A stretch of DNA of 64,000 nucleotides from Torpedo marmorata (GCA_977017645.1 OZ360230.1:31558001-31622000), one strand, 5' to 3'. Shown: positions 1 through 61,168, counted from the stretch's first letter. Numbers and translations are program-made. The notes: generated by a model from the letters alone, not told the origin.

Positions 1-147
1 CTCTCCCCACTACAACTTCAATTTCGACGACACCAATCACTACGGAGACAACGAGCACAACAACCACACAGAGCTCCACTCCTCCAGGAACAACTGACAC
101 TACGACAACTTCAACAACTGATGTCAGCTCCACATCAACAGGAATTT
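1..147 (+). CDS. PTS exon A1 (5' end outside window)
   Basis: ...TTDVSSTSTGI then GTAAGT donor at 148. Confidence 0.8.
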
Positions 148-718
148 GTAAGTTGCAAATACTCTGTCCATGAAAAATTGAATTCATCCTCTGTTAACAA
201 ATAAAGTAACACAGAAAACTTGATTGAAACAAAATTAGTCAGTGATGGAAAAAGGTGCCGAGTAAATTGTACTTTGTCTTTTGTATTGTCACTTTCTCAA
301 AAGAAAAAGGAACAACTTGATTGAATTTCAGGTTCGATTCTGTTTGTGAATCAACTTGAAAATCATTTGCGACCAAATGATCTACTCTAGCGCCATGTAT
401 TCCATTTTCAATCATTTTTGTCACAACTAATCCAGCTGCAAGCATTCCTATTGATCTTCTCTTGTTTCAAATAATGCTGATGCAAGTCGGAACATTTCAG
501 TTCCGTCACTTTTAAACTACACCCACTGTGAATACATCTGATGCAAGCACACTTGTTTGGAACCCCAAATGTATAAATATGTCTGAAGACATCTTTATAG
601 AATGGGTTTTTGCCCAGACACTTCATCTGTGTATCAATTGCTAACTTGTTTTGAGTGAGTAAGAAAAAAAAAATCATTTCATGGATTATCAATCATGAGT
701 AACTATGTTTCATTGCAG

Positions 719-892
719 CTTCAACAACCCCTCCTACGACAACTACATCCCCTGCTACAACTTCAACATCCATGACACCATTCACTTCGGAGACACCGAG
801 CACAACAACATCGCAGAGCTCCACTCCTCCCCCAACAAGTGAAACTACCATGTCTACAACAACTGATGTCAGTTCAACAACAACAGTAATTT
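719..892 (+). CDS. PTS exon B1 (174 bp)
   Basis: TTGCAG acceptor, GTAAGT donor, open frame STTPPTTTTSPA...DVSSTTTVI. Confidence 0.8.
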
Positions 893-1362
893 GTAAGTTG
901 GTAACGCTATGTCCATGAACAAAAGAGTATCACTCTCAGTAACTAAATAAATAACACAGATCAACTGGATTGACTGACATGAGCTATTGAGACTGTTAAT
1001 TATTATCAATGTCAGAAAATGCTAAATAGTCCACTCCGGTTATCACTGTCCCTTTTTCTATCATATGTGTCACAACTCGTTCCAATGCAAATGTCCTGAA
1101 GATTAACTAAAGTTGTACACAATTTTCATGTTTCCGCAATCCCGTTTCAAATACTCATATTACCGCTCCTATACAGGTGAGCATGATTCAGTCGCTCTAA
1201 CCTCAAACACACAACATTAATAACATGTAAAGCCTTGATTACATAAGGTACAGTCAACCTGGAAATTTGCACTCTGTATCACGAGCATACATGCTGTAAA
1301 ATAACAACAAAATCATTTAATTTCATATGATATTCCAAGCTGAATATCTATGTTTAATGCAA

Positions 1363-2295: not shown

Positions 2296-2372
2296 GTAAG
2301 TAGTAAACGCAATATCCATTAACTATAGAGGATCACTCTCAGAAAGCATATAAAGTAACACAGACCAACTGG

Positions 2373-4053
2373 CTCATCGGGCTGTGATGGCTCAGCTCAT
2401 CAGGCTGTTATGCTTCACTACCCGATGAGCTGAACAACTTCTATGCCCGCTTTGAGAAGAAGAACCAAACAGTGCCTACTAGAATCCCTGAAAAGGCTGA
2501 GGTCCCTGTGATATCTGTCTCTGAGGGCGACGTCAGAACATCATTCAAGAGGGTGAACCCTCGCAAGGCGTCAGGCCCTGACGGCGTACCTGGCATGGTA
2601 CTGAAAATCTGCGCCACCCAACTAGCCGTTGTGTTCGCGGACATTTTCAACCTCTCATTGCGGCAGTCAGAGGTTCCCACCTGCTTCAAAAGGGCATCAA
2701 TCATCCTTGTTCCCAAGAAGAGTAATGTGAGCTGCCTCAACGACTACCTCCCAGTAACATTAACTTCTACTGTGATGAAATGCTTTGAGAGGCTGTTCAT
2801 GGCCAGAAATAAAACATACCTAAACAAAGATCTGGACCCACTGCAACTCGCCTATCGTCACAATCACTCCACAGCAGATGCAATATCGCTGGCTCTCCAC
2901 TCAGCTCTGGATCACCTCGAAAACAGCAATTCATACCTACGACTGCTCTTCATCGACTACAGCTCGGCGTTCAATACCATTATTCACTCAGTGCTGGTCA
3001 AGAAGCTACTAGCTCGAGGCCTCTGTACCTTTCTCTGCAACTGGATCCTTGACTTTCTCATCGGAAGATCACAGTCAGTACGAATTGGAAACAACATCTC
3101 CTCCTCACTGATTATCAACACAGGAGCACCCAAAGGATGCATGCTTAGCCCACTGCTCTACTCGTTATACAACCATGAATGTGTGACTAGGCACAATTCC
3201 AATGCCATCTACATGTTTGCCGATGACACCACAGTTGTCGGCAGATTCACAAACGGCAATGAGGAAGCATACTGGAGGGAGACAGATCAGCTCATTGAAT
3301 GGTGTAACGACAACAACCTTGCATCATCAAAACCAAGGATATGATTGTGGACTTCAGGAGAAAGTCAGGGGAACACGACCCAATCCTCATTGAGGGTTGA
3401 GTAGTGGAGAGGGTCAAGAACTTCAAATTCCTGGGTGTCAACATCTCCGAGGATCTGTCCTGGAGCCTACACTTTGATGCAATCAGAAAGAAGGCTCGTC
3501 AGCGGCTATACTTTATGAGGTGTCTGAGGAGATTCAGTATGTCACCGAAGACTCTCGTAAACTTCTACAGGTGTACCGTGGAGAGCATTTTGGCTGGTTG
3601 CATCACTGCCTGGTATGAAGGTGCCAACTCTCAGGACAAGAGAAAACTGCAGAGGGTTGTTAACTCAGCCTTTGACATCACAGGCCCAAGACTTCACTCC
3701 ATCGAGGACATCTCCATGAGGCGCTGTCTTAAAAAAGCAGCCTCCATCCACAAGGACCCCCACCACCCAGGCCATGCCCTCTTCACTCTGCTACCATCGG
3801 GAAAAAGGTACAGGAGCCTAAAAACGAGCACTCAACGGCACAAGGACAGCTTCTAACCCGCTGCCATCAGATTCCTGAATAATCAATGAACCAAAGACTG
3901 CCTTACTTTTCGTGCACTATTATTTATATATATATATTTTCTTTTATATAGTAATATCGTAAGATAGTTATAATGTGAATGCTTGCACTATGATGCTACC
4001 GCAAAACACTGAATTTCATGACTTGTTCATGACAATAAATTCTGATTCTGATT
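2373..4053 (+). mobile_element. 5'-truncated Rex1/Babar-type LINE (RT pseudogene), copy 1
   Basis: Motifs KASGPDG, FIDYSSAFNTI, GAPKGC, FADDT, FKFLGV, KDPHHP; frameshift and stops; (TTCTGA)n tail. Confidence 0.88.
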
Positions 4054-4159
4054 CTGGTTTGACTCTCATGAGCAATTGAGACTGTGAACCATTATGAAAG
4101 TCAAAAACTGGTAAATAGTCTACTATGGTTGTCACTGCCCGTTTTCTAACATACGTATC

Positions 4160-5043
4160 TGTTGTGTTGAGAAAGAGTATCTGGTTTGGTGGGTTCACAG
4201 AGAGACAATTCTGGACACAAGGGTTTGCAAATCACATGTAACTTTTATTAACACACAACAATTTATAGAAGATTGTGGGAAATCGTAATGGGAATAAAAC
4301 ACACCCGCACACAATTTATAAAAGAGCTTGGCAAAATCGTAACGGGAATAAAACACACACGAGCACAATTTATAAAAGAGTGTGGGAAAATCGTAACGGG
4401 AATAAAACACACACACACACAATTTATAAAAGAGCATGGTAAAATCGTAACGGGAAACAAACAAAGTGGAGAACGTTAAAGAGTACACAATTTCTAATTC
4501 ACACAGGCAATGCAGACATTCACACACTATAAGCAGGGGTTCTACACACGTTCCCGGATCCCTGATCATTGGAAGGTGGCCCTAATACACACTACACACA
4601 GGGGTGTACACATGCTCCCGGACCCCTGATCGTTGGGAGTGACGGATCAACTGTACATATTGATCGATAGCAATTTGATCTATAGCAACACTACGGCTCA
4701 GCTTCAGTGCAGTGCACACCTTACCTGCGACCCTTCCAAGCGACGTCCATAGTAGCGACCTGGTATGGAGCAGTATCCGGGGCTCAGAGCATGAGTGAGA
4801 GAGAGTGAAATGTTCGCTGTGCTGGCGCTAAATACAGTACTAATCTGTGTGTCTAGCCTATAGTGACGCTGAGTGATTTGAATTAGCCAACAGAAAGGTG
4901 TGCACTAATTAGTGGCCGGTGTCCAACCTTGACTGACAGGTGATATGAATTCCGAATAAGTTCCATACGGGGAAGACACGTGACCACTCGCAATACACAC
5001 ATTCCAGACAAGAAGGGAGGCCACATCTCCTCCACACACAACA
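4160..5043 (-). mobile_element. Solo LTR, copy 1 (884 bp)
   Basis: TGTTGTGT...ACACAACA inverted ends; GTATC duplicated at 4155-4159 and 5044-5048; interrupts sequence contiguous in the paralogous B-C intron; strand inferred only from AATAAA on the minus strand near 4245. Confidence 0.8.
4258..4460. repeat. 54 bp minisatellite inside the solo LTR (recurs in every unit; one copy fewer in units 7-8)
   Basis: ACAATTTATAAAAGAG...AAAATCGTAACGGGAATAAAACACAC repeats at 4311, 4365, 4419. Confidence 0.9.
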
Positions 5044-5354
5044 GTATCACAACAAGTTCCTATGCAAATGTCCTGACGATCAACTCCAGTTGTACGCAAT
5101 TTTCACGTATCTTCATATGTTTCCCCCACTCCAGTTTCAATGGTTCATACTACAACTACTATCACAGGTGAACCTGATTCTATCACTCTTGCTTCAAACA
5201 CCCAACTTTAATAACATGTAAAGCCTTGATTACACAAGGCCTCGTCAACTTGGAACTTTCTGCTTTTAATCACGAGCATACATGTTGTGAGTTAACAACT
5301 AAGTCATTACATTTCACATGATATTCAATGCTCAATTTCTATGCTTAAATGCAG

Positions 5355-5525: not shown

Positions 5526-6096
5526 GTAAGTTGCAAATACTCTGTCCATGAAAAATTGAATTCATCCTCTGTTAAAAAATAAAGTAACACAGAAAACTTG
5601 ATTGAAACAAAATTAGTCAATGAAGGAAAAAGGTGCCGAGTAAATTGTACTTTGTCTTTTGTATTGTCACTTTCTCAAAAGAAAAAGGAACAACTTGATT
5701 GAATTTCAGGTTCGATTCTGTTTGTGAATCAACTTGAAAATCATTTGCGACCAAATGATCTACTCTAGCGCCATGTATTCCATTTTCAATCATTTTTGTC
5801 ACAACTAATCCAGCTGCAAGCATTCCTATTGATCTTCTCTTGTTTCAAATAATGCTGATGCAAGTCGGAACATTTCAGTTCCGTCACTTTTAAACTACAC
5901 CCACTGTGAATACATCTGATGCAAGCACACTTGTTTGGAACCCCAAATGTATAAATATGTCTGAAGACATCTTTATAGAATGGGTTTTTGCCCAGACACT
6001 TCATCTGTGTATCAATTGCTAACTTGTTTTGAGTGAGTAAGAAAAAAAAAATCATTTCATGGATTATCAATCATGAGTAACTATGTTTCATTGCAG

Positions 6097-7673: not shown

Positions 7674-7750
7674 GTAAGTAGTAAACGCAATATCCATTAA
7701 CTATAGAGGATCACTCTCAGAAAGCATATAAAGTAACACAGACCAACTGG

Positions 7751-9306: not shown

Positions 9307-9337
<31 letters not shown>

Positions 9338-13073: not shown

Positions 13074-13150
13074 GTAAGTAGTAAACGCAATATCCATTAA
13101 CTATAGAGGATCACTCTCAGAAACCACATAAAGTAACACAGACCAACTGG

Positions 13151-14699
13151 CTCATCGGGCTGTGATGGCTCATCTCATCGGGCTGTTATGCTTCACTACC
13201 CGATGAGCTGAACAACTTCTATGCCCGCTTTGAGAAGAAGAACCAAACAGTGCCTACTAGAATCCCTGAAAAGGCTGAGGTCCCTGTGATATCTGTCTCT
13301 GAGGGCGACGTCAGAACATCATTCAAGAGGGTGAACCCTCGCAAGGCGTCAGGCCCTGACGGCGTACCTGGCAGTGTACTTAAAATCTGCGCCAACCAAC
13401 TAGCCGGAGTGTTCACGGACATTTTCAACCTCTCATTGCGGCAGTCAGAGGTTCCCACCTGCATCAAAAGGGAATCAATCATCCTAGTACCCAAGAAGAG
13501 TAGTGTGAGCTGCCTCAACGACTACCGCCCAGTAGCATTAACTTCTACTGTGATGAAATGCTTTGAGAGGCTGTTCATGGCCAGAAATAAAACATACCTA
13601 AGCAAAGATCTGGACCCACTGCAACTCGCCTATCGTCACAATCACTCCACAGCAGATGCAATATCGCTGGCTCTCCACTCAGCTCTGGATCACCTCGAAA
13701 ACAGCAATTCATACCTACGACTGCTCTTCATCGACTACAGCTCGGCGTTCAATACCATTATTCACTCAGTGCTGGTCAAGAAGCTACTAGCTCGAGGCCT
13801 CTGTACCTTTCTCTGCAACTGGATCCTTGACTTTCTCATCGGAAGATCACAGTCAGTACGAATTGGAAACAACATCTCCTCCTCACTAATTATCAACACA
13901 GGAGCACCCAAAGGATGCATGCTTAGCCCACTGCTCTACTCGTTATACAACCATGAATGTGTGACTAGGCACAATTCCAATGCCATCTACATGTTTGCCG
14001 ATGACACCACAGTTGTCGGCAGATTCACAAACGGCAATGAGGAAGCATACTGGAGGGAGACAGATCAGCTCATTGAATGGTGTAACGACAACAACCTTGC
14101 ATCATCAAAACCAAGGATATGATTGTGGACTTCAGGAGAAAGTCAGGGGAACACGACCCAATCCTCATTGAGGGCTGAGTAGTGGAGAGGGTCAAGAACT
14201 TCAAATTCCTGGGTGTCAACATCTCCGAGGATCTGTCCTGGAGCCTACACTTTGATGCAATCAGAAAGAAGGCTCGTCAGCGGCTATACTTTATGAGGTG
14301 TCTGAGGAGATTCAGTATGTCACCGAAGACTCTCGTAAACTTCTACAGGTGTACCGTGGAGAGCATTTTGGCTGGTTGCATCACTGCCTGGTATGAAGGT
14401 ACCAACTCTCAGGACAAGAGAAAACTGCAGAGGGTTGTTAACTCAGCCTTTGACATCACAGGCCCAAGACTTCACTCCATCGAGGACATCTCCATGAGGC
14501 GCTGTCTTAAAAAAGCAGCCTCCATCCACAAGGACCCCCACCACCCAGGCCATGCCCTCTTCACTCTGCTACCATCGGGAAAAAGGTACAGGAGCCTAAA
14601 AACGAGCACTCAACGGCACAAGGACAGCTTCTAACCCGCTGCCATCAGATTCCTGAATAATCAATGAACCAAAGACACTGCCTTACTTTTCGTGCACTA

Positions 14700-18486: not shown

Positions 18487-18563
18487 GTAAGTAGTAAACG
18501 CAATATCCATTAACTATAGAGGATCACTCTCAGAAACCACATAAAGTAACACAGACCAACTGG

Positions 18564-20112
18564 CTCATCGGGCTGTGATGGCTCATCTCATCGGGCTGTT
18601 ATGCTTCACTACCCGATGAGCTGAACAACTTCTATGCCCGCTTTGAGAAGAAGAACCAAACAGTGCCTACTAGAATCCCTGAAAAGGCTGAGGTCCCTGT
18701 GATATCTGTCTCTGAGGGCGACGTCAGAACATCATTCAAGAGGGTGAACCCTCGCAAGGCGTCAGGCCCTGACGGCGTACCTGGCAGTGTACTTAAAATC
18801 TGCGCCAACCAACTAGCCGGAGTGTTCACGGACATTTTCAACCTCTCATTGCGGCAGTCAGAGGTTCCCACCTGCATCAAAAGGGAATCAATCATCCTAG
18901 TACCCAAGAAGAGTAGTGTGAGCTGCCTCAACGACTACCGCCCAGTAGCATTAACTTCTACTGTGATGAAATGCTTTGAGAGGCTGTTCATGGCCAGAAA
19001 TAAAACATACCTAAGCAAAGATCTGGACCCACTGCAACTCGCCTATCGTCACAATCACTCCACAGCAGATGCAATATCGCTGGCTCTCCACTCAGCTCTG
19101 GATCACCTCGAAAACAGCAATTCATACCTACGACTGCTCTTCATCGACTACAGCTCGGCGTTCAATACCATTATTCACTCAGTGCTGGTCAAGAAGCTAC
19201 TAGCTCGAGGCCTCTGTACCTTTCTCTGCAACTGGATCCTTGACTTTCTCATCGGAAGATCACAGTCAGTACGAATTGGAAACAACATCTCCTCCTCACT
19301 AATTATCAACACAGGAGCACCCAAAGGATGCATGCTTAGCCCACTGCTCTACTCGTTATACAACCATGAATGTGTGACTAGGCACAATTCCAATGCCATC
19401 TACATGTTTGCCGATGACACCACAGTTGTCGGCAGATTCACAAACGGCAATGAGGAAGCATACTGGAGGGAGACAGATCAGCTCATTGAATGGTGTAACG
19501 ACAACAACCTTGCATCATCAAAACCAAGGATATGATTGTGGACTTCAGGAGAAAGTCAGGGGAACACGACCCAATCCTCATTGAGGGCTGAGTAGTGGAG
19601 AGGGTCAAGAACTTCAAATTCCTGGGTGTCAACATCTCCGAGGATCTGTCCTGGAGCCTACACTTTGATGCAATCAGAAAGAAGGCTCGTCAGCGGCTAT
19701 ACTTTATGAGGTGTCTGAGGAGATTCAGTATGTCACCGAAGACTCTCGTAAACTTCTACAGGTGTACCGTGGAGAGCATTTTGGCTGGTTGCATCACTGC
19801 CTGGTATGAAGGTACCAACTCTCAGGACAAGAGAAAACTGCAGAGGGTTGTTAACTCAGCCTTTGACATCACAGGCCCAAGACTTCACTCCATCGAGGAC
19901 ATCTCCATGAGGCGCTGTCTTAAAAAAGCAGCCTCCATCCACAAGGACCCCCACCACCCAGGCCATGCCCTCTTCACTCTGCTACCATCGGGAAAAAGGT
20001 ACAGGAGCCTAAAAACGAGCACTCAACGGCACAAGGACAGCTTCTAACCCGCTGCCATCAGATTCCTGAATAATCAATGAACCAAAGACACTGCCTTACT
20101 TTTCGTGCACTA

Positions 20113-31685: not shown

Positions 31686-31927
31686 TGTGGTAAACCACTG
31701 TTTGTGTATTGTATGTACTGCTGTCTGTCCCGACGACTCCTCTCCCCTCCTTTGGGTCTCCAGGTAATCCCTCCCCTTTTCTCTCTTGAATAAAGGCTTG
31801 TGTGCTAGGGCTCCGCCCTCAGTCCGGGAGATCTGTAGGTCCACTGCAGGTCTGTTTTATGTATATTAAAGCCTATGGTACGTTAACCCTCTCATAGTCT
31901 CTTGAGTGCTAATTGATAGGCATATCA
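31686..31927 (+). repeat. Gypsy 5' LTR
   Basis: TGTGGTAAAC...GCATATCA; two mismatches to the 3' LTR. Confidence 0.95.
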
Positions 31928-31950
31928 ATTTAATATACATAAGAAAAATT

Positions 31951-34560: not shown

Positions 34561-35887
34561 GCATTTTACCCTGCTCACAGATCAACGCTCTGTGGCATTC
34601 ATGTTCAACATTCAGCAGCGGGGTAAGATCAAAAATGACAAGATCATGAGGTGGAGGATAGAGCTCTCCACCTACAATTACGACATCATGTACCGGCCCG
34701 GGAAGCTCAATGAGCCCTCCGATGCTCTATCCCGGGGATCGTGCGCTAGCGCGCAGGTCGACCGATTACACGCCCTACATAACGACCTATGCCACCCAGG
34801 AATTACCAGGCTCTTTCACTTCGTGAAGTCACAGAACCTGCCATACTCCCTGGAAGAGGTCAGGACAATGTTCAGCAGTTGCCGGGTTTGCGCGGAGTGC
34901 AAACCCCAGTTTTACCGCCCCGACAAGGCACAGCTGATCAAAGCCACTCGCCCCTTTGAACGTCTCAGCATTGACTTCAAGGGTCCCCTTCCCTCCACGA
35001 ACCGCAATGTGTACTTTCTGAACATTATTGACGAGTACTCGCTGTTCCCCTTCGCCATTCCCTGCCCCGACACTTCGGCTGCCTCAACCATAAAAGCTCT
35101 TCGCCAGGTATTTACGCTGTTCGGCTTCCCGAACTACATTCATAGCGACCGGGGATCAGCTTTTATGAGTGAGGAGCTGCGCCAGTTCCTGCTGACCCGG
35201 GGCATCGCCACTAGTAGGACCACCGCATACAACCCCCGAGGTAATGGACAGGTGGAAAGGGAGAACGCCACTGTCTGGAAGGCGGCGCTCCTGGCTCTCA
35301 AGTCCAGGGGACTGCCGGTTTCCCGCTGGCAAGATGTTCTCCCCGAAGCCCTCCATTCGATACGGTCCTTACTGTGCACAGCCACCAATGTAACGCCTCA
35401 TGAGAGATTTTTCTCCTTCTCCAGGAGGTCGAACACCGGGACCGCCCTGCCTGCCTGGCTGACGTCTCCGGGGCCGGTGCTGCTCCGCAACCACCTCCGG
35501 AGCAGCAAATATGAGCCCGCGGTCCAGAGGGTGCAGTTAGCGCACGCTAACCCGCAGTACGCCTACGTGGTCTTCCCGGATGGGAGAGAGGACACGGTCT
35601 CAATTCGGGACCTGGCGCCCGCGGGAGCGCCGGAGGAACCTCTCGATGGGCAAGACCACTCGCTGCGGCCCCTCCCTATTCCCTCTTCTACAACGTCAGA
35701 CCAGGCACCCGCGATGGAACCCACAATCCTGCCATCTCACCCAGCACCACAGGAGGAGGCGACGGCCTTGCCATCTTCCCCTGCACCACAACCCGCACCC
35801 AGGGTACCCCCTGCACCACAACCCGCACCCAGGGTACTGCGCAGGTCACAGAGGCGAGCCAAACCACCGGACCGCCTTGACCTGTAG
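34550..35887 (+). CDS. Gypsy pol C-terminal part (end of RNase H, integrase)
   Basis: LTDQ, DALSR, HHCC (HNDLCHPG...CRVC), IDFKGP, SDRGSAF, NGQVER. Confidence 0.9.
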   Translation, partial: LAGKHFTLLTDQRSVAFMFNIQQRGKIKNDKIMRWRIELSTYNYDIMYRPGKLNEPSDALSRGSCASAQVDRLHALHNDLCHPGITRLFHFVKSQNLPYSLEEVRTMFSSCRVCAECKPQFYRPDKAQLIKATRPFERLSIDFKGPLPSTNRNVYFLNIIDEYSLFPFAIPCPDTSAASTIKALRQVFTLFGFPNYIHSDRGSAFMSEELRQFLLTRGIATSRTTAYNPRGNGQVERENATVWKAALLALKSRGLPVSRWQDVLPEALHSIRSLLCTATNVTPHERFFSFSRRSNTGTALPAWLTSPGPVLLRNHLRSSKYEPAVQRVQLAHANPQYAYVVFPDGREDTVSIRDLAPAGAPEEPLDGQDHSLRPLPIPSSTTSDQAPAMEPTILPSHPAPQEEATALPSSPAPQPAPRVPPAPQPAPRVLRRSQRRAKPPDRLDL

Positions 35888-35962
35888 ATTATGACTGTAA
35901 ATACTTTGAGATTGTATTGTGGCCACTTCACCCCGCTGGACTCTTTTCAAAGGAGGGGTGAA

Positions 35963-36204
35963 TGTGGTAAACCACTGTTTGTGTATTGTATGTACTGCTG
36001 TCTGTCCCGACGACTCCTCTCCCCTCCTTTGGGTCTCCAGGTAATCCCTCCCCTATTCTCTCTTGAATAAAGGCTTGTGTGCTAGGGCTCCGCCCTCAGT
36101 ACGGGAGATCTGTAGGTCCACTGCAGGTCTGTTTTATGTATATTAAAGCCTATGGTACGTTAACCCTCTCATAGTCTCTTGAGTGCTAATTGATAGGCAT
36201 ATCA
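35963..36204 (+). repeat. Gypsy 3' LTR
   Basis: Direct repeat of 31686-31927 following the PPT. Confidence 0.95.
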
Positions 36205-41072: not shown

Positions 41073-42657
41073 TGTTGTGTTGAGAAAGAATATCATGTTC
41101 GGTGGGTTCACAGAGAGACAAGTCTGGACACAAGGGTTTGCAATCACATGTAACTTTTATTAACACACAACAATTTATAGAAGATTGTGGGAAATCGAAA
41201 TGGGAATAAAACACACACGCACACAATTTATAAAAGCGTGTGGGAAAATCGTAACGGGAATAAAACACACACGCACACAATTTATAAAAGAGCATGGTAA
41301 AATCGTAACGGGAAACAAACAGTGGAGAACGTTAAAGAGTACACAATTTCTAATTCACACAGGCAATGCAGACATTCACACACAATAAGCAGGGGTTCTA
41401 CACACGTTCCCGGATCCCTGATCATTGGAAGGTGGCCCTAATACACACTACACACAGGGGTGTACACATGCTCCCGGACCCCTAATCGTTGGGAGCGGCG
41501 GCTCAACTGTAAATATTGATCTTTAGCAATTTGATCTATAGCAACACTACGGCTCAGCTTCAGTGCAGTGCACACCTTACCTGCGACCCTTCCAAGCGAC
41601 GTCCATAGTAGCGACCTGGCATGGAGCAGTGTCCAGAGCTCAGAGCATGATTGAGAGAGAGCGAAATGTGCGCTGTGCTGGTGCTAAATACAGTACTAAT
41701 CTGTGTGTCTAGCCAATAGTGACGCTGAGTGATTTGAATTAGTCAACAGAAAGGTGTGCCCTACAAAAACTAAAGAAATTTAATCCAACATTATCAGGTT
41801 TATGTTTTAGATGTAATAAAGAAGAAGGTTTTTTTGTACATTCTGCATGGTTTTGTCCACAAGTTTATGATTTTTGGTTGAAAGTTAAAAATTCTTTAGA
41901 TAAAGTATTCAAGATTACATTTCCAATGGATCCTATGATATTTTTGTTTGGAGATATTAGAAAATTTAGTAGTAAGATGAAATTAAATATATATCAAATA
42001 GAATTTTTGTGAATTGCCTTAGCTGTTTCAAAGAAATGTTGCTATCACTTGGAAATCTGATCTAGATTTAGGATTAGAAAGATGGCATGCAGAACTTCGC
42101 TCGTGTATACCACTTGAAAAAAATTACTTTTAATTTACGTAATAAATATCATTTAAAAAAAAAAAATTTGGAGCCCATATATGAAAGTTGTTGGTTTAAG
42201 GATTTAACATCTCTGGATATCGGATCTACTGGCATACCTGACCTCCACAATAGAATTAGTTTATAGATGTATGTTTTTTAGATTGGCATTCTTCTTACTC
42301 TATCTTTTTCTTTCTTTCTTTTTCTTTCTCTATTTTTATTTTTTATTTTATATTTTTCTTTTTCTTAGATGAGTGGGGTTGGGAGGGTTGGGGAGGGGCG
42401 GGATGAGAGGGGGGGTGAAAATGTATCACAAATATTTTGATAATTTCATATTTTATTTTATGTATTCTGTGATTTAAAATTTTAAATAAAATATTTTTAA
42501 AAAAAAGAAAGGTGTGCACTAATTAGTGGCCGGTGTCAAACCTTGACTGACAGGTGATATGAATTCCGAATAAGTTCCATACGGGGAAGACACGTGACCA
42601 CTCGCAATACACACATTCCAGACAAGAAGGGAGGCCACATCTCCTCCACACACAACA
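41073..42657 (-). mobile_element. Solo LTR, copy 7, split by an L1 fragment
   Basis: Same ends and TSD; interrupted at 41760-42505. Confidence 0.8.
41760..42505 (+). mobile_element. 5'-truncated L1-clade LINE 3' end
   Basis: AT-rich; CFRC zinc-knuckle remnant, G-rich 3' UTR, A tail; TSD AGAAAGGTGTGC (41748-41759, 42506-42517); same family as 44712-46742. Confidence 0.85.
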
Positions 42658-44711: not shown

Positions 44712-46742
44712 GAGATATTTTATTTAAAATTTTTAAATCACAAAATACATAAAATAAAATATTAAATTATCAAAGTATTTGCAATACATTTTCACCCCTC
44801 CTCCCCCCTCCCCTCCCCAACCCTCCCAACCCCACTAATCTAATAAAAATAAAAATATAAAATAAAAATAGAAAAAAAAAGAAGAAAAAAGAAAGAAAAA
44901 GATAGAGTAAGGAGAATACCAATCTATATACTAATTCTATTATGGAGGTCAAGTATGCCAGTAGATCCGATATCCAGAGATCTTCAAATCCTTAAACCAA
45001 CAACTTTCATATATGGGCTCCAAATTTTTAGAAAGAAATGATATTTATTACGTAAATTATAAGTAATTTTTTCAAGTGGTATACACGAACGAAGTTCTGC
45101 ATGCCATCTTTCTAATCCAAAATCTAAATCAGATTTCCAAGTAATAGCAATACATTTCTTTGTAACAGCTAAAGCAATTTGCAAAAATTCTATTTGATAC
45201 ATATTTAATTTCATCTTAATACTAAATTATCTAATATCTCCAAACAAAAATATCATAGGATCCATTGGAAATGTAATCTTAAATACTTTATCTAAAAATC
45301 TTTTAACTTTCAACCAAAAATCATAAAACTTTTGGATAAAACCATGTAGAATGTACAAAAGACCCTTCCTCTTTATTACATCTAAAACATAAACCTGATA
45401 ATGTCCGATTAAATTTCTTTAGTTTTTTAGGTGTTAAATATAATTGATGAAAAAAATTGTATTGTACTAATCTATATCTAACATACTTCGTCATACTTAA
45501 TTTACATAATTCTTTCCAATGATTTTCATCTATTCTTACATTCAAATCTAATTCCCATTTTAATCTTGATTTATGAATTCCTACTTTAGGCATTTTCCTC
45601 TGAAACAATTTATACATTTGAGAAATAAATTTATTGACATCTCCTTTAGTAACTAATAATTCTAATTCATTCTGTCTTGGTAAAATCAAAGCATAACCTA
45701 ATTTCTCAATCAGAAAAGCTCTAATTTGATAATAAGCAATAAGTGTATTATCTAATATATTAAATTTATCTTTCATTCTTTGAAAAGTAATACATTTCCC
45801 AGCTTCAAAGCAATCATTAATTTTTAAATTCCTTTTTGAAACCAAATGTTAAATAATTGATTATTAATAGTAAATGGAATAAGTCCATTTTGATATAAAG
45901 GCATCCTTGAAGAAATCAATCCTTTTCCTCCTATTTCCTTATCCGTCTTATTCCATATTTCTAAAAAATGTTTAAAAATAGGTGAATTTTTCTTTCTTGT
46001 TGATATTAATTTAGAATCCCATTTATAAATAACTTCTTCTTTGGAATCTTCTCCTATATTATTTAATTCTATTTTAATCCAAGCAGAAGATTTAGTTGAA
46101 TCAAAAAATTCATTAACAAATTTTAGTTGAGCTTCTTTATAATAATTTTGGAAATTAGGAAGTTGTAAACCCCCATTTCATAATTCCAAGTTAATTTTTC
46201 CATACCTACTCTTGCTAACATTCTTTTCCATAAAAATTTTCTAATAATTGAATTTAAATCTTTAAAACATTTTTGAGGAATTTCATAAGGAATAGATTGC
46301 AAAAGATATATAATTCTTGGAATAACATTCATTTTAATACAATTTACTCTTCCCATTAAAGTTATAGGTAATTCTTTCCAATTTTCTAAATCTTTCTTTA
46401 TTTTCACAAATAATGGTAAATAATTTAATTTGTATAAATTAGCCATTTTTGTGTCAACCCTTATTCCCAAATATTTAATTCCTTCCTTTGCCCATTTAAA
46501 TTGTGTAATTTCTTTACATCTACTATAATCTCCTTGTGATAATGCCATAATTTCACTTTTATCAGAATTAAATTTATATCCAGATATTTCCCCATATTCT
46601 CTCACTAACACAGACAATTGTACTAAGGATGTAGTAGATTTTGTCATATATATCAATACATCATCTGCAAATAAACTAATTTTATGTTCTTCCATTCCAA
46701 CTTTAATACCAACTATTTTAGGATCTTTTCTAACTAATTCTT
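44712..46742 (-). mobile_element. 5'-truncated L1-clade LINE (ORF2 RT C-terminal half and 3' UTR), frameshifted
   Basis: SLFADDVL, IKYLGI, GRVNCIKMN, CFRC; 17 bp TSD AGATAATGAATAACTTG (44695-44711, 46743-46759). Confidence 0.9.
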
Positions 46743-47174
46743 AGATAATGAATAACTTGATTGAATTTCAGGATTGATTCTGATCGTGAATTATCTTGAA
46801 AATCAATTGCATTCAAATGATCAACTCTTGCTCCAAGTATTCCGTTTTCAATCAATTTTGTCACAATTAATCCAGCTGCAAGCATTCCTATTGAATTTCT
46901 CACGTTGCAAATTATGCTGATGCAAATCAGTGTTTCACTTCCATCACTTTTGACTACTCAATTTTCAACTCTTCCCACTAAGACACAAGTAGAGGTGATA
47001 CAAGCACACTTGTTTCAAAGCCCAATTGTATAAATATGTCTATACACATCTTTATAAATATGGTGTTTCCCAGACACTTCGATCATGTTTCAGTTGCTAA
47101 ATTGTTTTGAGTTAATAAGAGAGAAATAATCATTTCATGCAATAACTATATTGTGTATCCATGTTTCAATGCAG

Positions 47175-50293: not shown

Positions 50294-50464
50294 TGACAAC
50301 ATCTCCAGCTACAACTACACTCCCCACTACAACTTCAATATCTACGACACCAATCACTACGGAGACAACGAGCACAACAACCACACAGAGCTCCACTCCT
50401 CCAGGAACAACTGACACTACGACAACTTCAACAACTGATGTCAGTTCCACAACAACAGGTATTT
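50294..50464 (+). CDS. PTS exon A9
   Basis: AAATGCAG / GTAAGT, 171 bp open. Confidence 0.78.
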
Positions 50465-51308: not shown

Positions 51309-51570
51309 AAACAAACTATGCAAATACAGAAGTATAAATATTCAGTAATAAATGATGAGTAAAGTATGAGTCCTTAAATAAGTCTCTGAATGTGTCTGTT
51401 GATCAGGAGAAGTCTGATGGATGAAAGGTAGCAACTTTTCCTGAACCTGGAGGTATGAGTCTTTCCTGATGACAGCAGTGAGAACAGAACATGTTCTGGG
51501 TGATGTGGATCCTTGCTGATTGCTGCTGCTCTCCGGTGGCAGCGTTCCATGTAGATTTTTTTGATGGTTG
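51309..51570 (-). mobile_element. Degenerate 3' fragment of a Rex1/Babar-like LINE
   Basis: Minus strand encodes KDPHHP near 51497-51515; shares sequence with 55490-55751. Confidence 0.6.
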
Positions 51571-52425
51571 TGTTACAAAATCAAACCAGCAACGACAGAA
51601 GACGCAATGCAAAAGGGGTAAAATTGAAATTATTATTTATTAAACACAAGTAAACATATAATTTCACAACAATTAACCCCACTATAAACGTCTATACTCT
51701 ATTCTTATCTAAAAGGTGTATGTGTGTGTGTGTAAAGCCCAGACCATTACAGTCTGTGCCCAACCCTTATGTAAAAATGGAAAATCTTTCCCCAAAAACC
51801 CCAGGTCAGTCATAAAAAACAAGTCAGTCAAAAAAAAGATAAACAGTCTACAAATTTACTCTCTAAGTTCAGGCTTCAACTTTTTCTCTGTGTCTGGTAG
51901 AAGTACTTCTGAATGAACGTTGGAGAGAGACAATGACTGTTTATGCTTACAAATACTTGTTTTCTTCTCTGATGACGTCCCCTTCTTGTAGGTTCATAAG
52001 GATTGCAAGTTCCAGATCAGTATACCACTGATTTAGGCGTGTGCTTGAATCTCACAGCTCGTCTCGCTGATCTCACGCCTGTTCTCCACAGAAGTTGCTT
52101 TTCCTCAGAATTTCTCTGAGACAGGAGGCCATGTGCTCTTCTGCCAGTGATTTTCTCTGGCTGTGCACACAAGCCTGGATCTGGCTGTGTGCAGTAGCCT
52201 TTGCAACTCACAACTGTGTGCTTTGCAGAGATCTGCCCCTGATTTTTGCAAAAGTGCAACAATGTATCTATTCCACAGTCTGTCTCTCTCTGCTCTCTCT
52301 CTCTGGGTACACCAAGTCCTGGGGAAGTTAACTTTTTCAGTACCTGGCCCCAGTGTGTACACCAAAAGACTTCATCCTTCCTGCTGACCGTCCGCAGTCC
52401 AAATGGTCAGTCATGGTCCATAACA
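51571..52425 (-). repeat. 3' LTR of the Gmr1-type element (855 bp)
   Basis: TGTTA...TAACA inverted ends, abuts the PPT. Confidence 0.8.
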
Positions 52426-52970
52426 CCTCCCAACCTCAAAGGAAATTTTGGTCTGCAAGAACAAAATTTAGGAAAGTAAGTGAGGTGTCAGAATATAAAC
52501 AAAATCTACAATGTTCATCCACAAATACAAAATATGAACTATTTTCATTGATAAAGTTTAACATCTAGAAAGACAATCAGCAATTACATTATCTCTCCCT
52601 TTTATATGAGTGATTACCAAATTATATTCTTGCAAAATTAGACTCCAATTCAACAACCGTCGATTCTTATTTTTCATTTTACAAAGAAAAACCAATGGAT
52701 TATGGTCAGTATACACTATGAGTGGTTTTTGAGCTGTACAGATATACACATCAAAATGTTGTAGAGCCAACACAAGAGCCAACAACTCTTTCCCTATAGT
52801 TGAATAATTCCTTTGATGATCATTGAACTTCTTCGAGAAGTAGGATACCGGATGGTCAATGTCCTCTTCGTTCTTCTTCTGTAACAGCACCGCACCCACA
52901 GCTTCATCGCTCACATCCACGGCTAAAGAAAACGACTGTTCTAAATCAGGTGACTTAAGCACAGGCTCCT

Positions 52971-53140
52971 TTGTTCGGACGTCTGCCGGCATTTTCTCAT
53001 ACTTTGAAGAAGGGCTCAAGCCTGAAACGTCGGTTATGTATTTCTACCTTTGCTACATAAAAGACACTGTTTGACCTGCTGAGTTCTCCAGCTTTTGTGT
53101 TTTTTACTCTAACCACGGTGTCTACAGATTTTCGTGTTTA
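52971..53140 (+). mobile_element. Short Penelope-derived 3'-tail insertion splitting the Gmr1 pol
   Basis: Interrupts MLCHQ / PVLKSP; homologous to the minus-strand tail at 56556-56662 plus 57046-57070. Confidence 0.65.
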
Positions 53141-55346
53141 CTTTTGGTGGCATAACATGGCTTTCAATTTGACAAATGCTTCCTGACAACCTGTTGACCA
53201 TACAAATTTCTCTTTCTTTCTAAGCAAATTTGTGAGAGGGAGCGCAAGATCAGCAAAGTTTTTACAGAACTTGCGGTAGTAGCCAATCATTCCCAGGAAC
53301 CTCCTCAGAGTTTTCTTACCAGTTGGAACAGGGAACTCGGAAATAGCGACAACCTTTGCCTCTACTGGCGCCAACTTCCCCTGTCCTACTACATAACCCC
53401 GAGAATTAACAGTCCTATGACCCTCTCTGAATCTGGTTTCATCTGTCTCCTCCTTACCCCTGTCAATAACCAGCACCTCTGGTACATTTTCAGTCCCTTT
53501 GTGTGGCACCTATTCAAAATACGGCTTAATCATATTCACATGACAGACCTGTGTGTCTCGTCTGCGATTAGGTGTTTCTATGACATAGGTGACATAATTA
53601 ATTTTTGACTTAACTCTATAGGGTCCTGAAAATCTAGCCCTAAGATGATTTGAATGGATGGGAAACAGAACTAATACGTTCTCACCAGGTTTAAAAGTTC
53701 TCATCTTCGCCTTTCGATCATACCAAACCTTCATTCTCTGTTGAGTGGCCTTTAAATTCTCCTTTGCCATCTCACAAGCCCTATGCAATCGATCCTTAAA
53801 TTTGGAAACATAATCTAACAGATTTAAATGCACATCACGATTAATCCACTGTTCTTTTAATAATCTTAAAGGACCTCTCACCTCATGTCCGAAAACTAAC
53901 TCGAATGGACTAAAACCAAGTGAGTCTTGGACAGACTCCCTCGCTGCAAATAACAACAAATGAACCCCCTCATCCCAATCCTTTTCCTTCTCACAACAAT
54001 AGGTTCTAATCATGGTTTTCAAAGTCGAATGGAACCTCTCCAAGGCCCCTTGACTTTCTGGATGGTACGCAGAGGATACAATCTGTTTAACTCCTAGTCC
54101 ATCAACCACTTGTTGGAAAACACCTGACATGAAATTACTGCCCTGATCTGATTGAATTTCCCTTGGCAAACCTACCAAGGTGAAAAACTTTACCATAGCC
54201 TTTACAATGGACTTTGCTTTTATGTTTCTCAGAGGAATGGCCTCTGGAAATCTGGTGGCTGCACAAATAATTGTTAACAAATATTCATTCCCCGCTTTGG
54301 TTTTGGCCAATGGGCCAACACAGTCCACAATTACTCTCGAGAAAGGCTTACTGAAAGCAGGGATAGGTTGCAAGCGTGCCACCGGGGGACCCTGATTAGG
54401 TTTACCCCCCCCCTGACAAGTGTGACAGGCCCGGCAAAAGCTTACAACCTCCCTTCTTAAACTGGGCCAATAAAATTGTTTCATTATCTTCCGTATAGTT
54501 TTCTTCACCCCAAGATGACCACCTAAGGGTGTACTATGAGCCAAAGTTATTATTTCATCCCTATATACTTTAGGGATCACAACCTGCTGCACTACTGCCC
54601 ATTCTTCATTGGCTGGAACATCACGTGGTCTCCACTTTCTCATCAACACCCCATCTTTTTCATAATAACCTACTGGCACCTTTTTAATCTCCTCTTCAGA
54701 GAGAACCTTATCCCTCACCTCAACAAGATCAGGATCGTCCTTTTGCCTTGCTATTAACTCCTGTCGGGATAGTGACAAATCTGTGCCTTTAGGTGTCTTA
54801 TCAGTGGATGGGTGTAACATAGGAGATTGCTCAACCTTTTCCAGGTTTTCTTGATTATCAGTTTCTTTTTCTTTTACCAAGTTATTTTCCACTGCCTTCT
54901 CTACAGTCATCTTCACAAAAGAAAACAGATCAACTTGATTGAATTTCAGGATCAATTCTGAATGTAAATTGTCTTGAAAATCAATTACTGACAAATAATC
55001 TACACCTCTTCCATGTATTCCGTTTTCAATTATTTTTGTCAAAACTAATCCATCTAAGTGTTCCAGTTGATCTTCTCATGTTGTAAATAATCCTGATGCA
55101 AATCCAAAATTTCCACTTCCTTCAGATTCACCTCCATATATTTCAACTTCTCCCACAACAAGCTGCAACTGGAACAAGCACTCTTAATTGAGCCCCACAT
55201 GTATGAATATGTTCAAAAACCTTTTTCACACAATTTGGTATTACTTAGCTACATCTAATGTGTATCGCTTGCAAACATCTTATGTGTGAACAATAAAGAA
55301 CTAACCACATGTAATATCACTGCTGCCTATCCATGTTTAAATACAG

Positions 55347-55783
55347 CTGCAACAACCTCTCAAACTACAATGACTCCCCCTGCGACACATTCAAAATCAA
55401 TACTGTTCACTTCAGAGACAACGAGCACACCAACAACAAAGCAGAGCTCCACTCCTCCACCAACAAGTGAAACTACCACGTCTGCAACAGATTTCAGATT
55501 TATTGTCAGAGTACATACATGACATCACATACAATGCTGAGATTCTTTTTCCTGTGGGCCAGGAAGAATTAGCACTTATTGGTAGTGCAAAAAAAAACTA
55601 CACAACGTACACATGTAAACAAATAAAGAAATGTAAACAGACTGTGCAACACAGAGCGGAGAAAATAAATCAATAAAGTGCAAAAGTAAGAGTCCTTAAA
55701 TGATTCCCTGATTGAGTTTGTTGTTGAGGACTCTGATGGTGGAGGGGTAGGAACTGATGTCAGTTCCACAACAACAGGAATTT
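55347..55783 (+). pseudogene. PTS exon disrupted by a ~260 bp insertion
   Basis: ATACAG acceptor; exon breaks at 55489, resumes ACTGATGTCAGTTCC at ~55753; GTAAGT donor at 55784; in-frame stop at 55520-55522. Confidence 0.75.
55490..55751 (-). mobile_element. LINE 3' tail fragment (Rex1/Babar-like) inside the exon
   Basis: Minus strand ends GACAATAAATCTGAAATC, like the Rex tail; similar to 51360-51430. Confidence 0.6.
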
Positions 55784-56240: not shown

Positions 56241-56402
56241 CTACATCATCTTCTCCTATACCCACTATAATGTCAACATCTACCACACCAATCACCAGGG
56301 AGCTAATGAACAGAACAACGACACAGAGCTCCACTCCTTCGCGAACAAGTGAAACTGATACATCGACAACAACTGATGTCAGTTCCTCAACAACAGCAAT
56401 TT
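56241..56402 (+). CDS. Diverged PTS exon, A/C type (162 bp)
   Basis: ATGCAG acceptor, GTGAGT donor, open frame. Confidence 0.68.
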
Positions 56403-56553
56403 GTGAGTATATTATCCTCTGTCCATGAAAAATAGAGTATAATTCTCTGTTACTAAATAAAGTAACACAGATAAACTGGATTGATACAAAATTTTAAGGC
56501 AGTATCTGTGGTATTGTCATTCTCATAAAATAAAACTTATCAACTTGATTGAA

Positions 56554-59500
56554 GTGAAACACGAAAGTCTGCAGACACTGTGATTATAGTAAAAACACAA
56601 AAATGCAGGACGAACTCAGCAGGTCTCGCAGCGTCCATAAAAGGTAAAGATATATAACCAACCATAGCACCATAAAACATTACAGCACAGAAAACAGGTC
56701 ATTCGGCCCTTCTAGTCTGTGCCGAACTATTATTCTGCCTAGTCCCACTGACCTGCACCCATTCCATATCCCTCCATACCCCTCCCATCCATGTTCTGTC
56801 CAAATTTTTCTTAAACGTTAAAATAGAGCCCACATTCACCACTTCAGCTGGCAGTTCTTTCCACACTCCCACCACTCTCTGTGTGAAGAAATTCCCTCTA
56901 ATGTTTCCCCTAAACTTCTCCCCTTTCACCTTTAATCCATGTCCTCTGGTTTGTATCTCACTTAACCTCAGTGGAAAAAGCCTTCTTGCATTTATGCTAT
57001 CTATACCTATCATAATTTTGTATATCTCTATCAAATCTCACCTTTGTTTCGGGCCTGAGCCCTTCTTCAATGCTCGAGCAATAAACAGGCAGGCACCTGA
57101 ATAAAAAAGGCTGGGGGAATGGGAAAAAAGGACAGGGGGAGGAGCACAGGACAACGGACATAAGGTGATAATTAGACATGCATAGGATGACAGGAGATGA
57201 AAGGTGAGTATTGATCGGGGGGAGGGGGTTGCTCTGTGAATAGGAGACAGAGGGAAAGGAAAAGAGAGATAGAGCTAGAGGAAATAAAAAAATAAGGATA
57301 GGGGAAGGGAAGAGATGGGGGTGGGGTGGGGGAGGAGGCAACAAAAACCAGAGAAGTCGATGTCAATGCCATCTTGTTGGAGAGCGCCCAGTTGGAATAT
57401 GAGGTGTTGTTCCTCCAAATTGTGAGCGGCCCCAGTTCGGCAGCGCTTGAGACCATGGACAGACATGTCGGTATGGGAATGCAGCGTGGAATTGAAATGG
57501 GTTGCCACTGGGAGATCTCCGTCACTGCGGTAGGCAGAGCTGAGGTGCCGAATGAAGCGATCTCCCAGTCTGCATCCAGTCCCTTCGATGCAGAGGAGAT
57601 CACAATGGGTGCACCAGATGCAGGAGATGACAACCGCAGATCCAAAGTGAAGTGTTGCTTCTCCCAGAAGGACTGCCCGGGGCCCCGAATGGTGGTGAGG
57701 GAGGGGGCGCAGGCGCAAGTTCAACACCTCCTGCGGTTACAGGGGCAGGCTCCAAGGTGTCGACTGGTGGGAAGGGTGGAGTGGACGAGGGAGTCACGGA
57801 GGGAGGGGTTCTTGCGAAAGACAGAGAGGGGAAGATGTGTCTGATGGTGGGATCACACAGTAGGTGGCAGAAATGCCAGAGGATAATGTCGCGGTCGCGT
57901 ACTTACCTGCTTCGGGAGAAGTGCCTGTCGCCACTGATAACTTATCCAGGGCAATGCGTAGGAGTAGTAGCCACATGCGCGGGTCGGAACGGGGGGGGCT
58001 GCGTACACTGTGACAGATCTTGGACACAGGAGGAGGAGATTGAGCGCGTTGAGATCACCCGTGTGGCGGAGAGCCAATGAAAAGGTCAGGTGGGTTTGGC
58101 TGGGTGATGTTTTGTGCGATGAAGAATTTATTGTTGTGGCTGAGAAGAATAAAGAGGGTCAACTCCATTTTGTACTGAAAAATGAGTGAGTGTATTCTTT
58201 TTATTGTGTGTATACCGGGTAAATTATAGCTGCCACAATGATATGTTGGATGCAGAGGCTGGTGGGGTGGTAGGTGAGGACAAGGGGAATCCCATCCTTA
58301 CTGCGCGTGGCAGCGGATTGAGACAGGGTAAATGCGTGGGTAATGGGGGATATGTGGGCGAGGGTTGAGCCAATGGCAGCAGAGGGGAAGCCACGTTTTT
58401 TGAAGAAGGAGGACATCTACCATGGAAGACTTCGTCCTGGGAGCAGATGCGACAGAGTCAGAGGAATTGCGAGAAAGAATACAATCTTTACAGGAGACAG
58501 GGTGTGAAGAGGTGTCGTCAAGGTAGCTGTGGGAGTTGGTGGGTTTGTAGAAAATGTCTGTCGAGAGTTTGTCTCCCGAGATGAAGACAGAGAGATCGAG
58601 AATGGGGAGAATGTTGCTCGAGATGGACCAAGTGAATTTGAGGTTGGTGTAGGAGTTGGCAGCAAAGATGATAAAGTGAACAAGCACATCATGGGTGCAT
58701 GAGGCAGCACCAAAGCAGTCATTAATGAAGTGGAGGAAGAGTTGAAGAGCCTTGCCTGTGTAGGCTTGGAGGATGGATTGCTCCACATAGCCAACAAAAA
58801 AGCAGGCATAGCAGGGACCCATGCAGGTACCCATGGCTACCCCTATGACTTGGAGAAAGTGGGATAAGTTAAAGGTGAAGTTATTGAGGGTGAGGACAAG
58901 TTCTGCCTGCAGGAGGAGGGTGGTGGTGAAGGGGTACTGGTTGGGTCTGTTGTCGAGGAAGAAAGGAAGGGCTTTGAGGCTTTCATATAGGGGTGGAGGT
59001 CTATAGTGATTGGATGTTCATGGTGAAGATGAGGCGGTCGGGTTCAGGGAACTGGAAGTAGTCGAACTGATGGAGGGCATGTGTAGGTGGGGAGGGACTG
59101 GTCCAGGGGGAACAAAACGGATTTGAAGTAAGCGGATACCAGTTCGGTGGGACAGGAGCACGCGGAAACAATGTGTCTACCGGGACAATTGGGCTTGTGG
59201 ATCTTGGGTAGGAGGTAGAACTGGGAGGTGCGGGGTTGAGAAACAATAAGGTTGGACGCCGTGGAAGGGAGATGACAAGAAGTGATAAGATCAGAGATAG
59301 TTCATGAGAAGGTGATTTGATGGGTTTTGGTGGGGTCCTTTTGGAGGGGTAAGTAAGAGGAGGTGTATAACAGTTGTCTTCTGGCTTCGGCTAGAGAGAG
59401 GTCACTGTGCCAGACCACAACAGCGGCACCCTTGTCAGCAGGTTTGATAATGAAGTTGGGATTGGTGCGGAGAGAGTGGAGGGCAGAGTGTTCCAAGGGT

Positions 59501-60602
59501 GTGAGATTAGAATACGTGAGAGGAGTGGTGAATTCGAGATGGTTAATGTCTCGGCGGCATTTGGAAATATGAAGGTCCAAAGTGGGCAGAAGGCCAGAAC
59601 GAGGTGTCCTGGAGGAGGAAGAAGGTTTAAGGCGGGAGAAGGGGTCTGTAGTGTGGGGTGGAGAATCCTGGTGAACCTAGTGAGCACGGAGATGGAGCTG
59701 ATGGAAAGTCTGGCATCATGATGTGCGCGGAATCGTTGAGGTGTGAGTGAAGGAGGACAATGGTGAGGCCTCTACTGAGGACAGATCATTCCGACTGTGA
59801 GAGGGGAAGGTCAAAGGGGATGGTAAAGAACAGGCAAGGGTTGGAGTGAGGGTCAATGGGGTGGAGGGTGATGGGGGAGGAGGATGTGGTGGATCAGGAG
59901 GTGGAGGGTCAGAGGGATCCAAGGGAGGAAGGGGAGGTCAGAGGGGGGAAGGAGAGGATGAGAAGGGCCAGGGTAAGAGTTCGCAATAGAGGCTTGGTCC
60001 TGTAGGCCGCCAGGGCCGAGGTGGAGACCTGCATCGGAGATCGGAGAGGCTGCAGCCTTCTGGGAGGCGAGTTTTCGATCCTTGATGGACACCAGGCAAG
60101 TACAGAACCGACAGTTGAACAGGTGGATCTGGTGGAGGAAGAGGTGTACGAGAGGTCCGTGGCAGGTTGTGGTATGAGGTTTGGAGCTGTGGTAGTGAGA
60201 GAGCGAGGGTTCACTGGTATCAACACATGGAGGCGAGTGTGGACCGTAGGATACAGTGAGAGAAGCAAAGTCAGCAATAGTCAATGTAGTATAGGTAGCT
60301 GAGATCCTTGATGGGACCAAACTGGGAGACCTGGAACCGGAGCTGAAAGCCACGTGGCACAAGATGGCAGCGGAGACAAGTAGCCAGGATAGACAAGTGG
60401 CTGTGGAAGCGAGTCTGGGTAAGTACATGGTCGTAGAGCTTGAGAGCAGCAGGGAGTGCAGATGGGGAGCAGTGAGAGAGGCTCTCACAGAACTCCTTTT
60501 GAAGAGAGGAGAACTTCTTCAGGGTAGGCAACCCTCAAAGAGGTGCCGCAGTGGAGCCACCTAATGGATTAAAACACGAAAGCCTGCAGGCGCTATGTTT
60601 GA
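56554..60602 (-). mobile_element. Degenerate Penelope-like retroelement (RT plus GIY-YIG endonuclease)
   Basis: IKPADKG, MGTCMGPCYA, FINDCFG, TDIFYKPTNSHSYL, IPLVLTYHP, GIY-YIG remnant (VISCIWC...GCRLGDRFIRHL); flanked by TTGATTGAA at 56545-56553 and 60603-60611. Confidence 0.85.
56663..57045 (-). mobile_element. CR1 LINE 3' fragment nested in the Penelope tail
   Basis: IEIYKIM...TRGHGLK...FFTQRVVGVW...LP, CR1-type tail. Confidence 0.85.
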
Positions 60603-60997
60603 TTGATTGAATTTCATGATCGTTCTTGATTGTAAATTGTCTTGAAATCAATTGCTGCCAAATAATCTACTCCTGTTACAACGATTCCGTTTTCCATCAT
60701 TAATCCAGCTGTTAGTATTCTGGTTGATCTTCTCCTGTTGCAAAAATCCTGATGCAAATCCGAATATTTCATTTTCTTCAGATTCACCTACTTATATTTA
60801 AACTACTCCCACAACAAGCTGCAGTTGAAACAAGAACTGTTGCTTGAACCCCACATGTATGTCTCAAGTCATTTTTACAGAGTGTGGTGTTGCCAACAAC
60901 CTTCTTCTATGTATCACTTGCCAACATGTTGCGAGTGAACAAGAGAAAACATTAATTTTGTGTTATATTCATGCTGAATATCCATGTTTAAATGCAG

Positions 60998-61168
60998 CTC
61001 CAACAACCTCTCCAATTACAACAACTCCCCCTGCTCCAACTTCAACATCCATGACAACATTCACTTCGGAGACAACGAGCACAACATCGCAGAGCTCCAC
61101 TCCTCCACCAACAAGTGAAACTACCACGTCTACAACAACTGATGTCAGTTCCACAACAACAGGAATTT
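60998..61168 (+). CDS. PTS exon, B/D type (171 bp)
   Basis: AATGCAG / GTAAGT, PTTSPITTTPPAP...DVSSTTTGI. Confidence 0.75.

Follow-up and report, generated by a model that had tools for sequence, protein, structure and literature searches.

We consider it probable, judging from the DNA sequence, that the window (the whole 64,000-nt stretch of the Torpedo marmorata genome analyzed here, GCA_977017645.1 OZ360230.1:31558001-31622000) lies inside one large plus-strand gene and carries a live, multi-exon, O-glycosylated mucin-type PTS domain with one repeat per exon. Splicing would join the A, B, and D exons within each repeated unit and skip a fourth module, C, and each unit would add 173 residues of heavily O-glycosylated, Cys-free, extended chain, amounting to at least 1,553 residues in the window. 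The array would expand and shrink by unequal crossing-over and be homogenized by gene conversion, with selection preserving P/T/S composition, reading frame, and splice sites rather than the precise sequence. Because skipping is frame-neutral, the death of single exons (C, E, H, and an older relic within the introns) could be harmless.

A predicted array of phase-1 cassette exons

Scanning the window for the motif shared by the exon ends gave 38 matches, 37 of which have a module anchor: 9 A, 9 B, 8 C, and 8 D modules plus single E, F, and G modules. We presume that 28 of these are live, namely F, G, and all modules of the A, B, and D classes. The sequence-only reading had proposed about 28 phase-1 modules with shared boundaries and lengths of 162-177 bp, and this count was reproduced as 27 complete T/S/P-rich modules plus A1, which is cut by the window start so that its acceptor falls outside and only positions 1-147 are seen. 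All 27 complete modules follow a TGCAG acceptor, end in ATTT before a GT(A/G)AGT donor, measure 162, 168, 171, 174, or 177 bp (54-59 codons), are of phase 1-1, and hold a single open, P/T/S-rich frame that lacks Cys and stops. A repeat-per-exon, frame-symmetric design with canonical splice sites was thus found in 27 of 27. A blind rule requiring an acceptor, 150-183 nt in threes, an open frame of at least 60% P/T/S, and a donor returned 27 exons on the plus strand, none on the minus strand, and none in 50 local 500-nt shuffles.

The nine A-type exons (plus strand, positions 1-50464) end at 147, 5525, 10925, 16338, 21752, 27130, 37048, 43139, and 50464. They are 171 bp long, apart from the truncated A1 and the 168-bp A3, and contain a second in-frame acceptor 15 nt inside. 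A9 also offers another in-frame donor, placed 6 nt before its normal one (window positions 50294-50458). The nine B-type exons (plus strand, 719-51227) are 174 bp long, or 177 bp in B8 and B9, and end at 892, 6270, 11670, 17083, 22497, 27875, 37793, 43885, and 51227. The eight D-type exons (plus strand, 2122-47348; 174 bp) end at 2295, 7673, 13073, 18486, 23900, 29278, 39196, and 47348. Also on the plus strand are exon F (56241-56402, 162 bp), the most diverged intact module at 66% P/T/S, and exon G (60998-61168, 171 bp), the last intact module in the window.

Concatenated as they occur along the strand, the 27 modules yield 1,553 residues without a stop or Cys, of which 78% are P/T/S (T 45%, S 22%, P 10%), with one N-glycosylation sequon. 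If the exons are indeed joined, this is a long P/T/S-rich tandem-repeat domain, as expected of a mucin in the broad sense. The Cys residues of the raw ORFs arise where the final T of an exon runs into the intronic GT and from the intron itself, and predicted splicing removes them, as the earlier reading had held. Its figure of 173 residues per unit also stands, since A, B, and D sum to 519 nt, but its description of them as pure PTS does not, given the 78% share. It had further claimed that any subset of exons can be skipped in frame, and all 25 class-to-class junctions tested do keep the frame, yielding Ser or Leu. Regulated exon skipping would be possible.

Array architecture and probable growth and exon turnover

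Self-alignment revealed a 5.4-kb tandem unit over 1-51 kb with an internal period of 1.39 kb. Eight units of 5.3-5.4 kb (719-51050, plus strand) share the order B-C-D-LINE-LTR-like-A. Units U1-U6 are 99.2-100% identical, compared to about 97% for U7 and about 94% for U8. A four-unit super-period of 21.6 kb is 99.7% identical over 10 kb: U1 equals U5 at all aligned sites, U2 pairs with U6, and U3 pairs with U4. The recurrence of U1-U2 as U5-U6 (window positions 1-31685) reflects either a very recent duplication or an assembly duplication. Variants are shared between units in blocks (U3/U4, U2/U6), as expected from conversion or unequal exchange. In the 5' part of their LINEs (about 13100-13550 and 18500-18960), U3 and U4 have in common ~17 closely spaced variants that are absent from U1, U2, U5, and U6, and this block was probably acquired by gene conversion from a copy that had diverged further.

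The upstream introns fall into two types, type I before A, C, and F and type II before B, D, E, and G. The types are 31-43% different and still homologous, with alignment scores of 142-236 vs. about 80 for shuffles, so that the base unit is a ~0.7-kb exon-plus-intron monomer in two alternating types. The 3' edge of the array holds the older monomers that have diverged (A9, B9, E, F, G, H), and unequal crossing-over would be predicted to leave them there. The best reading is that the array grew by this process from a 0.7-kb monomer to a 1.4-kb dimer, a 5.4-kb transposon-carrying unit, and a 21.6-kb super-repeat.

Each unit carries one 5'-truncated LINE (2370-4050, plus strand) with RVT_1 and PF09004 domains and a GATTCT tail. 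It is broken, with 7, 20, and 20 stops in the three frames of the unit-2 copy, in keeping with the earlier statement that neighboring transposable elements are disrupted. Among the matches listed, relatives of the unit-7 LINE ORF were mostly fish RT proteins at 44-75% identity. Each unit also holds a TG...CA element (4158-5043, no strand assigned) with a 5-bp flanking duplication, which is solo-LTR-like and presumably of that class. In unit 6, this element is interrupted by a private Gypsy-type LTR retrotransposon (31686-36204, plus strand), sense to the exons, which encodes gag, protease, RT, RNase H, and integrase over two overlapping ORFs; its LTRs are 99.2% identical (2 mismatches in 242) and it has a 5-bp target-site duplication, marking it as young. 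Two private L1-like, AT-rich insertions (about 41762-42507 and 44712-46753, minus strand) have target-site duplications, and a second Gypsy-type fragment (51320-54905, minus strand) separates B9 from E. A 4-kb G-rich insertion between F and G (56553-60598) has similar short sequences at both ends, and its four tested ORFs had no Pfam match. The 2.8 kb that follow exon G in the window are mostly decayed module H and transposons, and the window end (62070-64000) is filled by LINE-like fragments, classed by eye.

Several modules appear to be dead exons of different ages. The eight C modules (plus strand, 1363-44539; ends at 1533, 6911, 12311, 17724, 23138, 28516, 38434, and 44539) are 171 bp long with an open frame, and we presume them to be pseudo-exons: both splice sites were lost before amplification (CAG to CAA, GT to AT). 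An internal CAG acceptor is kept, and the five donor-like sites nearby all give an out-of-frame or stop-containing exon, so that clean skipping of C is an assumption. Module E (55347-55783, plus strand) is a 174-bp exon (142 + 32) split by a 263-bp insertion; its splice sites persist, and unspliced it spans 437 nt and is out of frame. Module H (61801-62030, plus strand) has decayed, with its acceptor lost and in-frame stops, and is recognized by a monomer profile at 61801-61942 (E 2.6e-6).

An older layer may lie within the introns. A candidate mini-exon of 33 nt (5135-5167, plus strand; phase 1, Thr-rich), overlooked in the sequence-only reading, follows a CAG and ends in CAG before GTGA. It is intact in nine places, before A2-A9 and F, whereas its eight counterparts before C are 32 nt long and have no AG acceptor. 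That three lineages retain its splice sites could be due to chance, and wherever A2, A9, and F differ in it, the change is non-synonymous. The mini-exon sits within a decayed PTS-like relic of ~174 nt (5044-5217), and homologous intron stretches are alike. This relic has the size of a live exon and ends at a donor-like site in A/C-type introns, and its similarity to live exons is not significant. It may represent a class of exons that died earlier.

In eight of the nine module types examined, the donor is followed by an AATAAA at a distance of 23-54 nt (e.g., at 5578). This signal was inherited from one ancestor and has been lost or moved in D and G, so it need not be under selection. Reading through the A, B1/B8, or F donors would add a short Cys-x5-Cys-Pro tail followed by a stop, and intronic polyadenylation at these sites is possible.

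Tests for selection on the modules and alternative explanations

Because all copies share one ancestor, the diverged module types are the informative comparison. Across 7 module types, 94 of 153 exon columns were invariant compared to 113 of 306 in the flanking introns (Fisher p 9e-7), and tree length was 0.79 for exons vs. 1.53 for introns. The acceptor CAG and five of six donor bases were invariant across the 8 aligned non-C modules, and conservation rises at the AG and GT limits of the modules. A comparison of exon and intron indel spectra, proposed with the sequence-only reading, gave the expected contrast: all six short exonic indels were in frame compared to 6 of 34 intronic ones (p 2e-4, or 1e-3 if the E insertion is counted). 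The accompanying claim that every exonic indel preserves frame holds for the short indels and fails for that insertion. In three disjoint pairs, 11 of 23 non-synonymous differences exchanged one P/T/S residue for another, compared to 23% expected under a symmetric null that follows the substitution spectrum of the introns (P 0.004). Finally, across the 8 units, the 516 columns of the A, B, and D exons contain 18 extra states, while the 4,542 columns outside exons contain 393 (p 1e-5).

Other measures speak less for selection on the protein. The dN/dS check that had been suggested lends weak support: A2 and A9 differ by 7 synonymous changes and 1 non-synonymous change (P 0.003), but most pairwise values fall between 0.5 and 1.7 (near 1). 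The differences among B1, B8, and B9 are all non-synonymous. Codon positions vary alike (26/23/28, p 0.47), the absence of stops is not significant by itself (P 0.19-0.45), and exon F is more diverged than its intron. Fourfold sites are conserved as much as the whole exon (18 of 28), so that conversion or splicing enhancers, rather than protein selection, may partly explain the conservation. Dead module C is conserved like the live exons across the 8 units (4 extra states in 171 columns), and with 4 of 12 changes being P/T/S-to-P/T/S, it does not fall clearly short of single pairs of live exons. Moreover, exons contain 10-19 trinucleotide doublets each compared to 9 in a 571-nt intron, which would favor 3-nt slips even without selection.

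Selection on PTS domains is expected to act on composition rather than exact sequence. The pattern fits selection of this kind, on composition, frame, and splice sites, although current expression is not provable from it. Overall, the comparisons support the modules being present or recent spliced phase-1 exons of an O-glycosylated mucin-type domain.

The alternative that survives best, which we still regard as unlikely, is a recently dead gene or abandoned segment, in which exons shaped by past selection were later amplified neutrally as a macrosatellite-like 5.4-kb unit, after expression ceased or the segment fell outside the transcript. The selection signals do stem from old divergences between module types, and in the six youngest units, exons were not significantly less variable than other sequence (3 extra states in 516 columns vs. 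52 in 4,678, p 0.36). The five A/B/D exon variants in the youngest units are four missense changes and one 3-nt deletion. In addition, young transposons occupy the introns, including the sense-oriented Gypsy with its poly(A) signals, and two modules at the 3' edge, E and H, are broken. However, none of the 27 complete exons has a stop, frameshift, or splice-site loss, even in U7, U8, and A9/B9 at 3-7% divergence. The synonymous excess between A2 and A9 and the location of all transposons but one in introns likewise favor a segment in use.

It is rather improbable that the array belongs to an expressed protein outside the mucin family, such as a sialomucin, receptor stalk, egg-coat, or adhesive protein, with amplified phase-1 O-glycosylated stalk or spacer exons. 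Receptor stalks (e.g., those of CD45 and CD44) are commonly encoded by phase-1 cassette exons rich in Ser/Thr. This reading would agree with our finding no VWD, CysD, CK, or SEA exon among the modules or unique sequence, and with the lack of Pfam matches for the two tested exon peptides. Yet typical stalks are far shorter than a tandem PTS repeat of at least 1,553 residues, and such a protein would be a mucin by the working definition anyway.

Under the preferred reading of a live mucin-type domain, copy number is likely the main source of length variation. Unit identity of 99.2-100% in the single haplotype analyzed makes it likely that unit number differs between haplotypes, as in KIV-2. We are doubtful of a more elaborate scheme, in which length would be set jointly by unit copy number, in-frame skipping among at least 28 exons (with the 33-nt mini-exon and the 15-nt acceptor), and intronic polyadenylation. 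Were it true, each exon with a read-through tail could be terminal, giving a ladder of secreted, disulfide-capable chains, and the locus would be a vertebrate case of alternating homogenized introns like those of Argiope MaSp2 and would still show several layers of exon death.

Least probable is a non-coding A/C-rich macrosatellite that owes its PTS frame and splice-like sites to one chance ancestor, or a copy number that is partly an assembly artifact: the 27 copies, sharing one ancestor, do not count as independent, most dN/dS values are near 1, and no aligned site distinguishes U1 from U5, but the rise in conservation at exon limits, the indel spectrum, and the P/T/S bias set the modules apart from introns, and block-shared variants with private insertions distinguish the units, so that several copies at least are real.

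Gene identity and comparison with known systems

Human MUC19 reportedly has a many-exon repeat region. Within our window, we recognized no signal, VWD, CysD, CK, SEA, EGF, or TM exon; neither VWD-C8-TIL nor a cystine knot was seen there, and the termini of a gel-forming mucin would lie beyond it. The 5' end of the gene and its terminal exons, which would tell a secreted from a membrane-bound protein, fall outside the window. The aligned and translated introns showed no Cys-rich exon between modules, i.e., no CysD interspersion of the Muc2/Muc5 type, which argues against a typical Muc2/Muc5 layout. A scan beyond 51200 also found no Cys-rich exon, at limited sensitivity given that its strict donor filter missed the main exons as well. 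The remaining candidates may be a Muc19-, Muc6-, or Muc13-like mucin or an orphan mucin.

Homology searches were equally sparing. Neither exon B (E<=10) nor a 9-exon profile had a protein relative among the 8,000 candidates scored for each. A control for the profile recovered a 30%-mutated array and missed a 50%-mutated one, so distant relatives would escape. Scanning 1.84 billion representatives gave two matches, a tick repeat protein and an archaeal DUF11 protein, which we rejected as repeat artifacts. The top ESM Atlas match (score 0.76) was uninformative, and the exon-end pattern had no match in metagenome contigs.

The locus was undescribed in the literature searched, a body that omits most subscription papers. 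In mucin genes, the PTS domain usually goes without assembly or annotation, and little study has been devoted to the mucins of sharks (PMC10707392). Still, the suggestion that this is an undescribed system did not hold up, as both repeat-per-exon PTS domains and the idea of length control by splicing appear in published work (PMC1552070, PMC5789918, PMC7177656). Length control by splicing is thus an older hypothesis that can be tested at this locus, where A, B, and D exons differ by 14-22% and long reads could tell them apart, and no new mechanism is demonstrated. What appears new is scale and architecture: larger and more numerous exons, turnover of exons that can be seen in the sequence, and a nested repeat carrying transposons. 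The array would display the growth and turnover of a multi-exon PTS domain from monomer through dimer, unit, and super-repeat, with dead exons of different ages, and it lends support to an old vertebrate origin of the repeat-per-exon design, as suggested in PMC1552070.

In the chicken Muc13 PTS domain, each of at least 12 exons encodes one near-identical 20-residue repeat; its authors proposed in 2006 that length varies by recombination and by splicing (section 8), and the zebrafish homologue is also multi-exonic (PMC1552070). Our array shares the one-repeat-per-exon design, but its repeats are 54-59 residues long, number at least 28, fall into three live classes, and sit in a transposon-carrying higher-order repeat. 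The SEA and TM exons of Muc13 were not seen within this window. The central mucin domain of Xenopus tropicalis Otogl/MucXS, a skin mucin, is multi-exonic with 34 PTS repeats, and it interleaves 39 Cys-rich repeats, in contrast to the Cys-free spliced product predicted here (PMC5789918). Both are multi-exonic mucin domains of aquatic vertebrates. Xenopus laevis FIM-B.1 reportedly follows a cassette model. The related FIM-C.1 is described as highly polymorphic through alternative splicing, which in our array is a possibility, and FIM-B.1 and FIM-C.1 carry TFF, vWD, or SCR modules, none of which was found here (PMC7177656).

With respect to amplification, the KIV-2 unit of human LPA spans 5.6 kb, contains exons of 160 and 182 bp, and is present in 1 to >40 copies, and its copy number sets protein length (PMC6314250). 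Here, too, a unit is repeated together with its introns. However, KIV-2 encodes folded kringles with an obligate exon pair, while the unit here has three separately skippable low-complexity exons and a dead one. Argiope MaSp2 has hierarchical repeats bounded by homogenized introns of two alternating types, and its authors knew of no other eukaryotic example of such alternation (PMC9779670). Two monomer/intron types alternate in our array as well, but MaSp2 is a silk with small introns, and this is a vertebrate PTS array with ancient monomer types and kilobases of transposon per unit. As predicted from its sequence, the locus resembles Muc13 and the FIM genes in exon design and KIV-2 in amplification.
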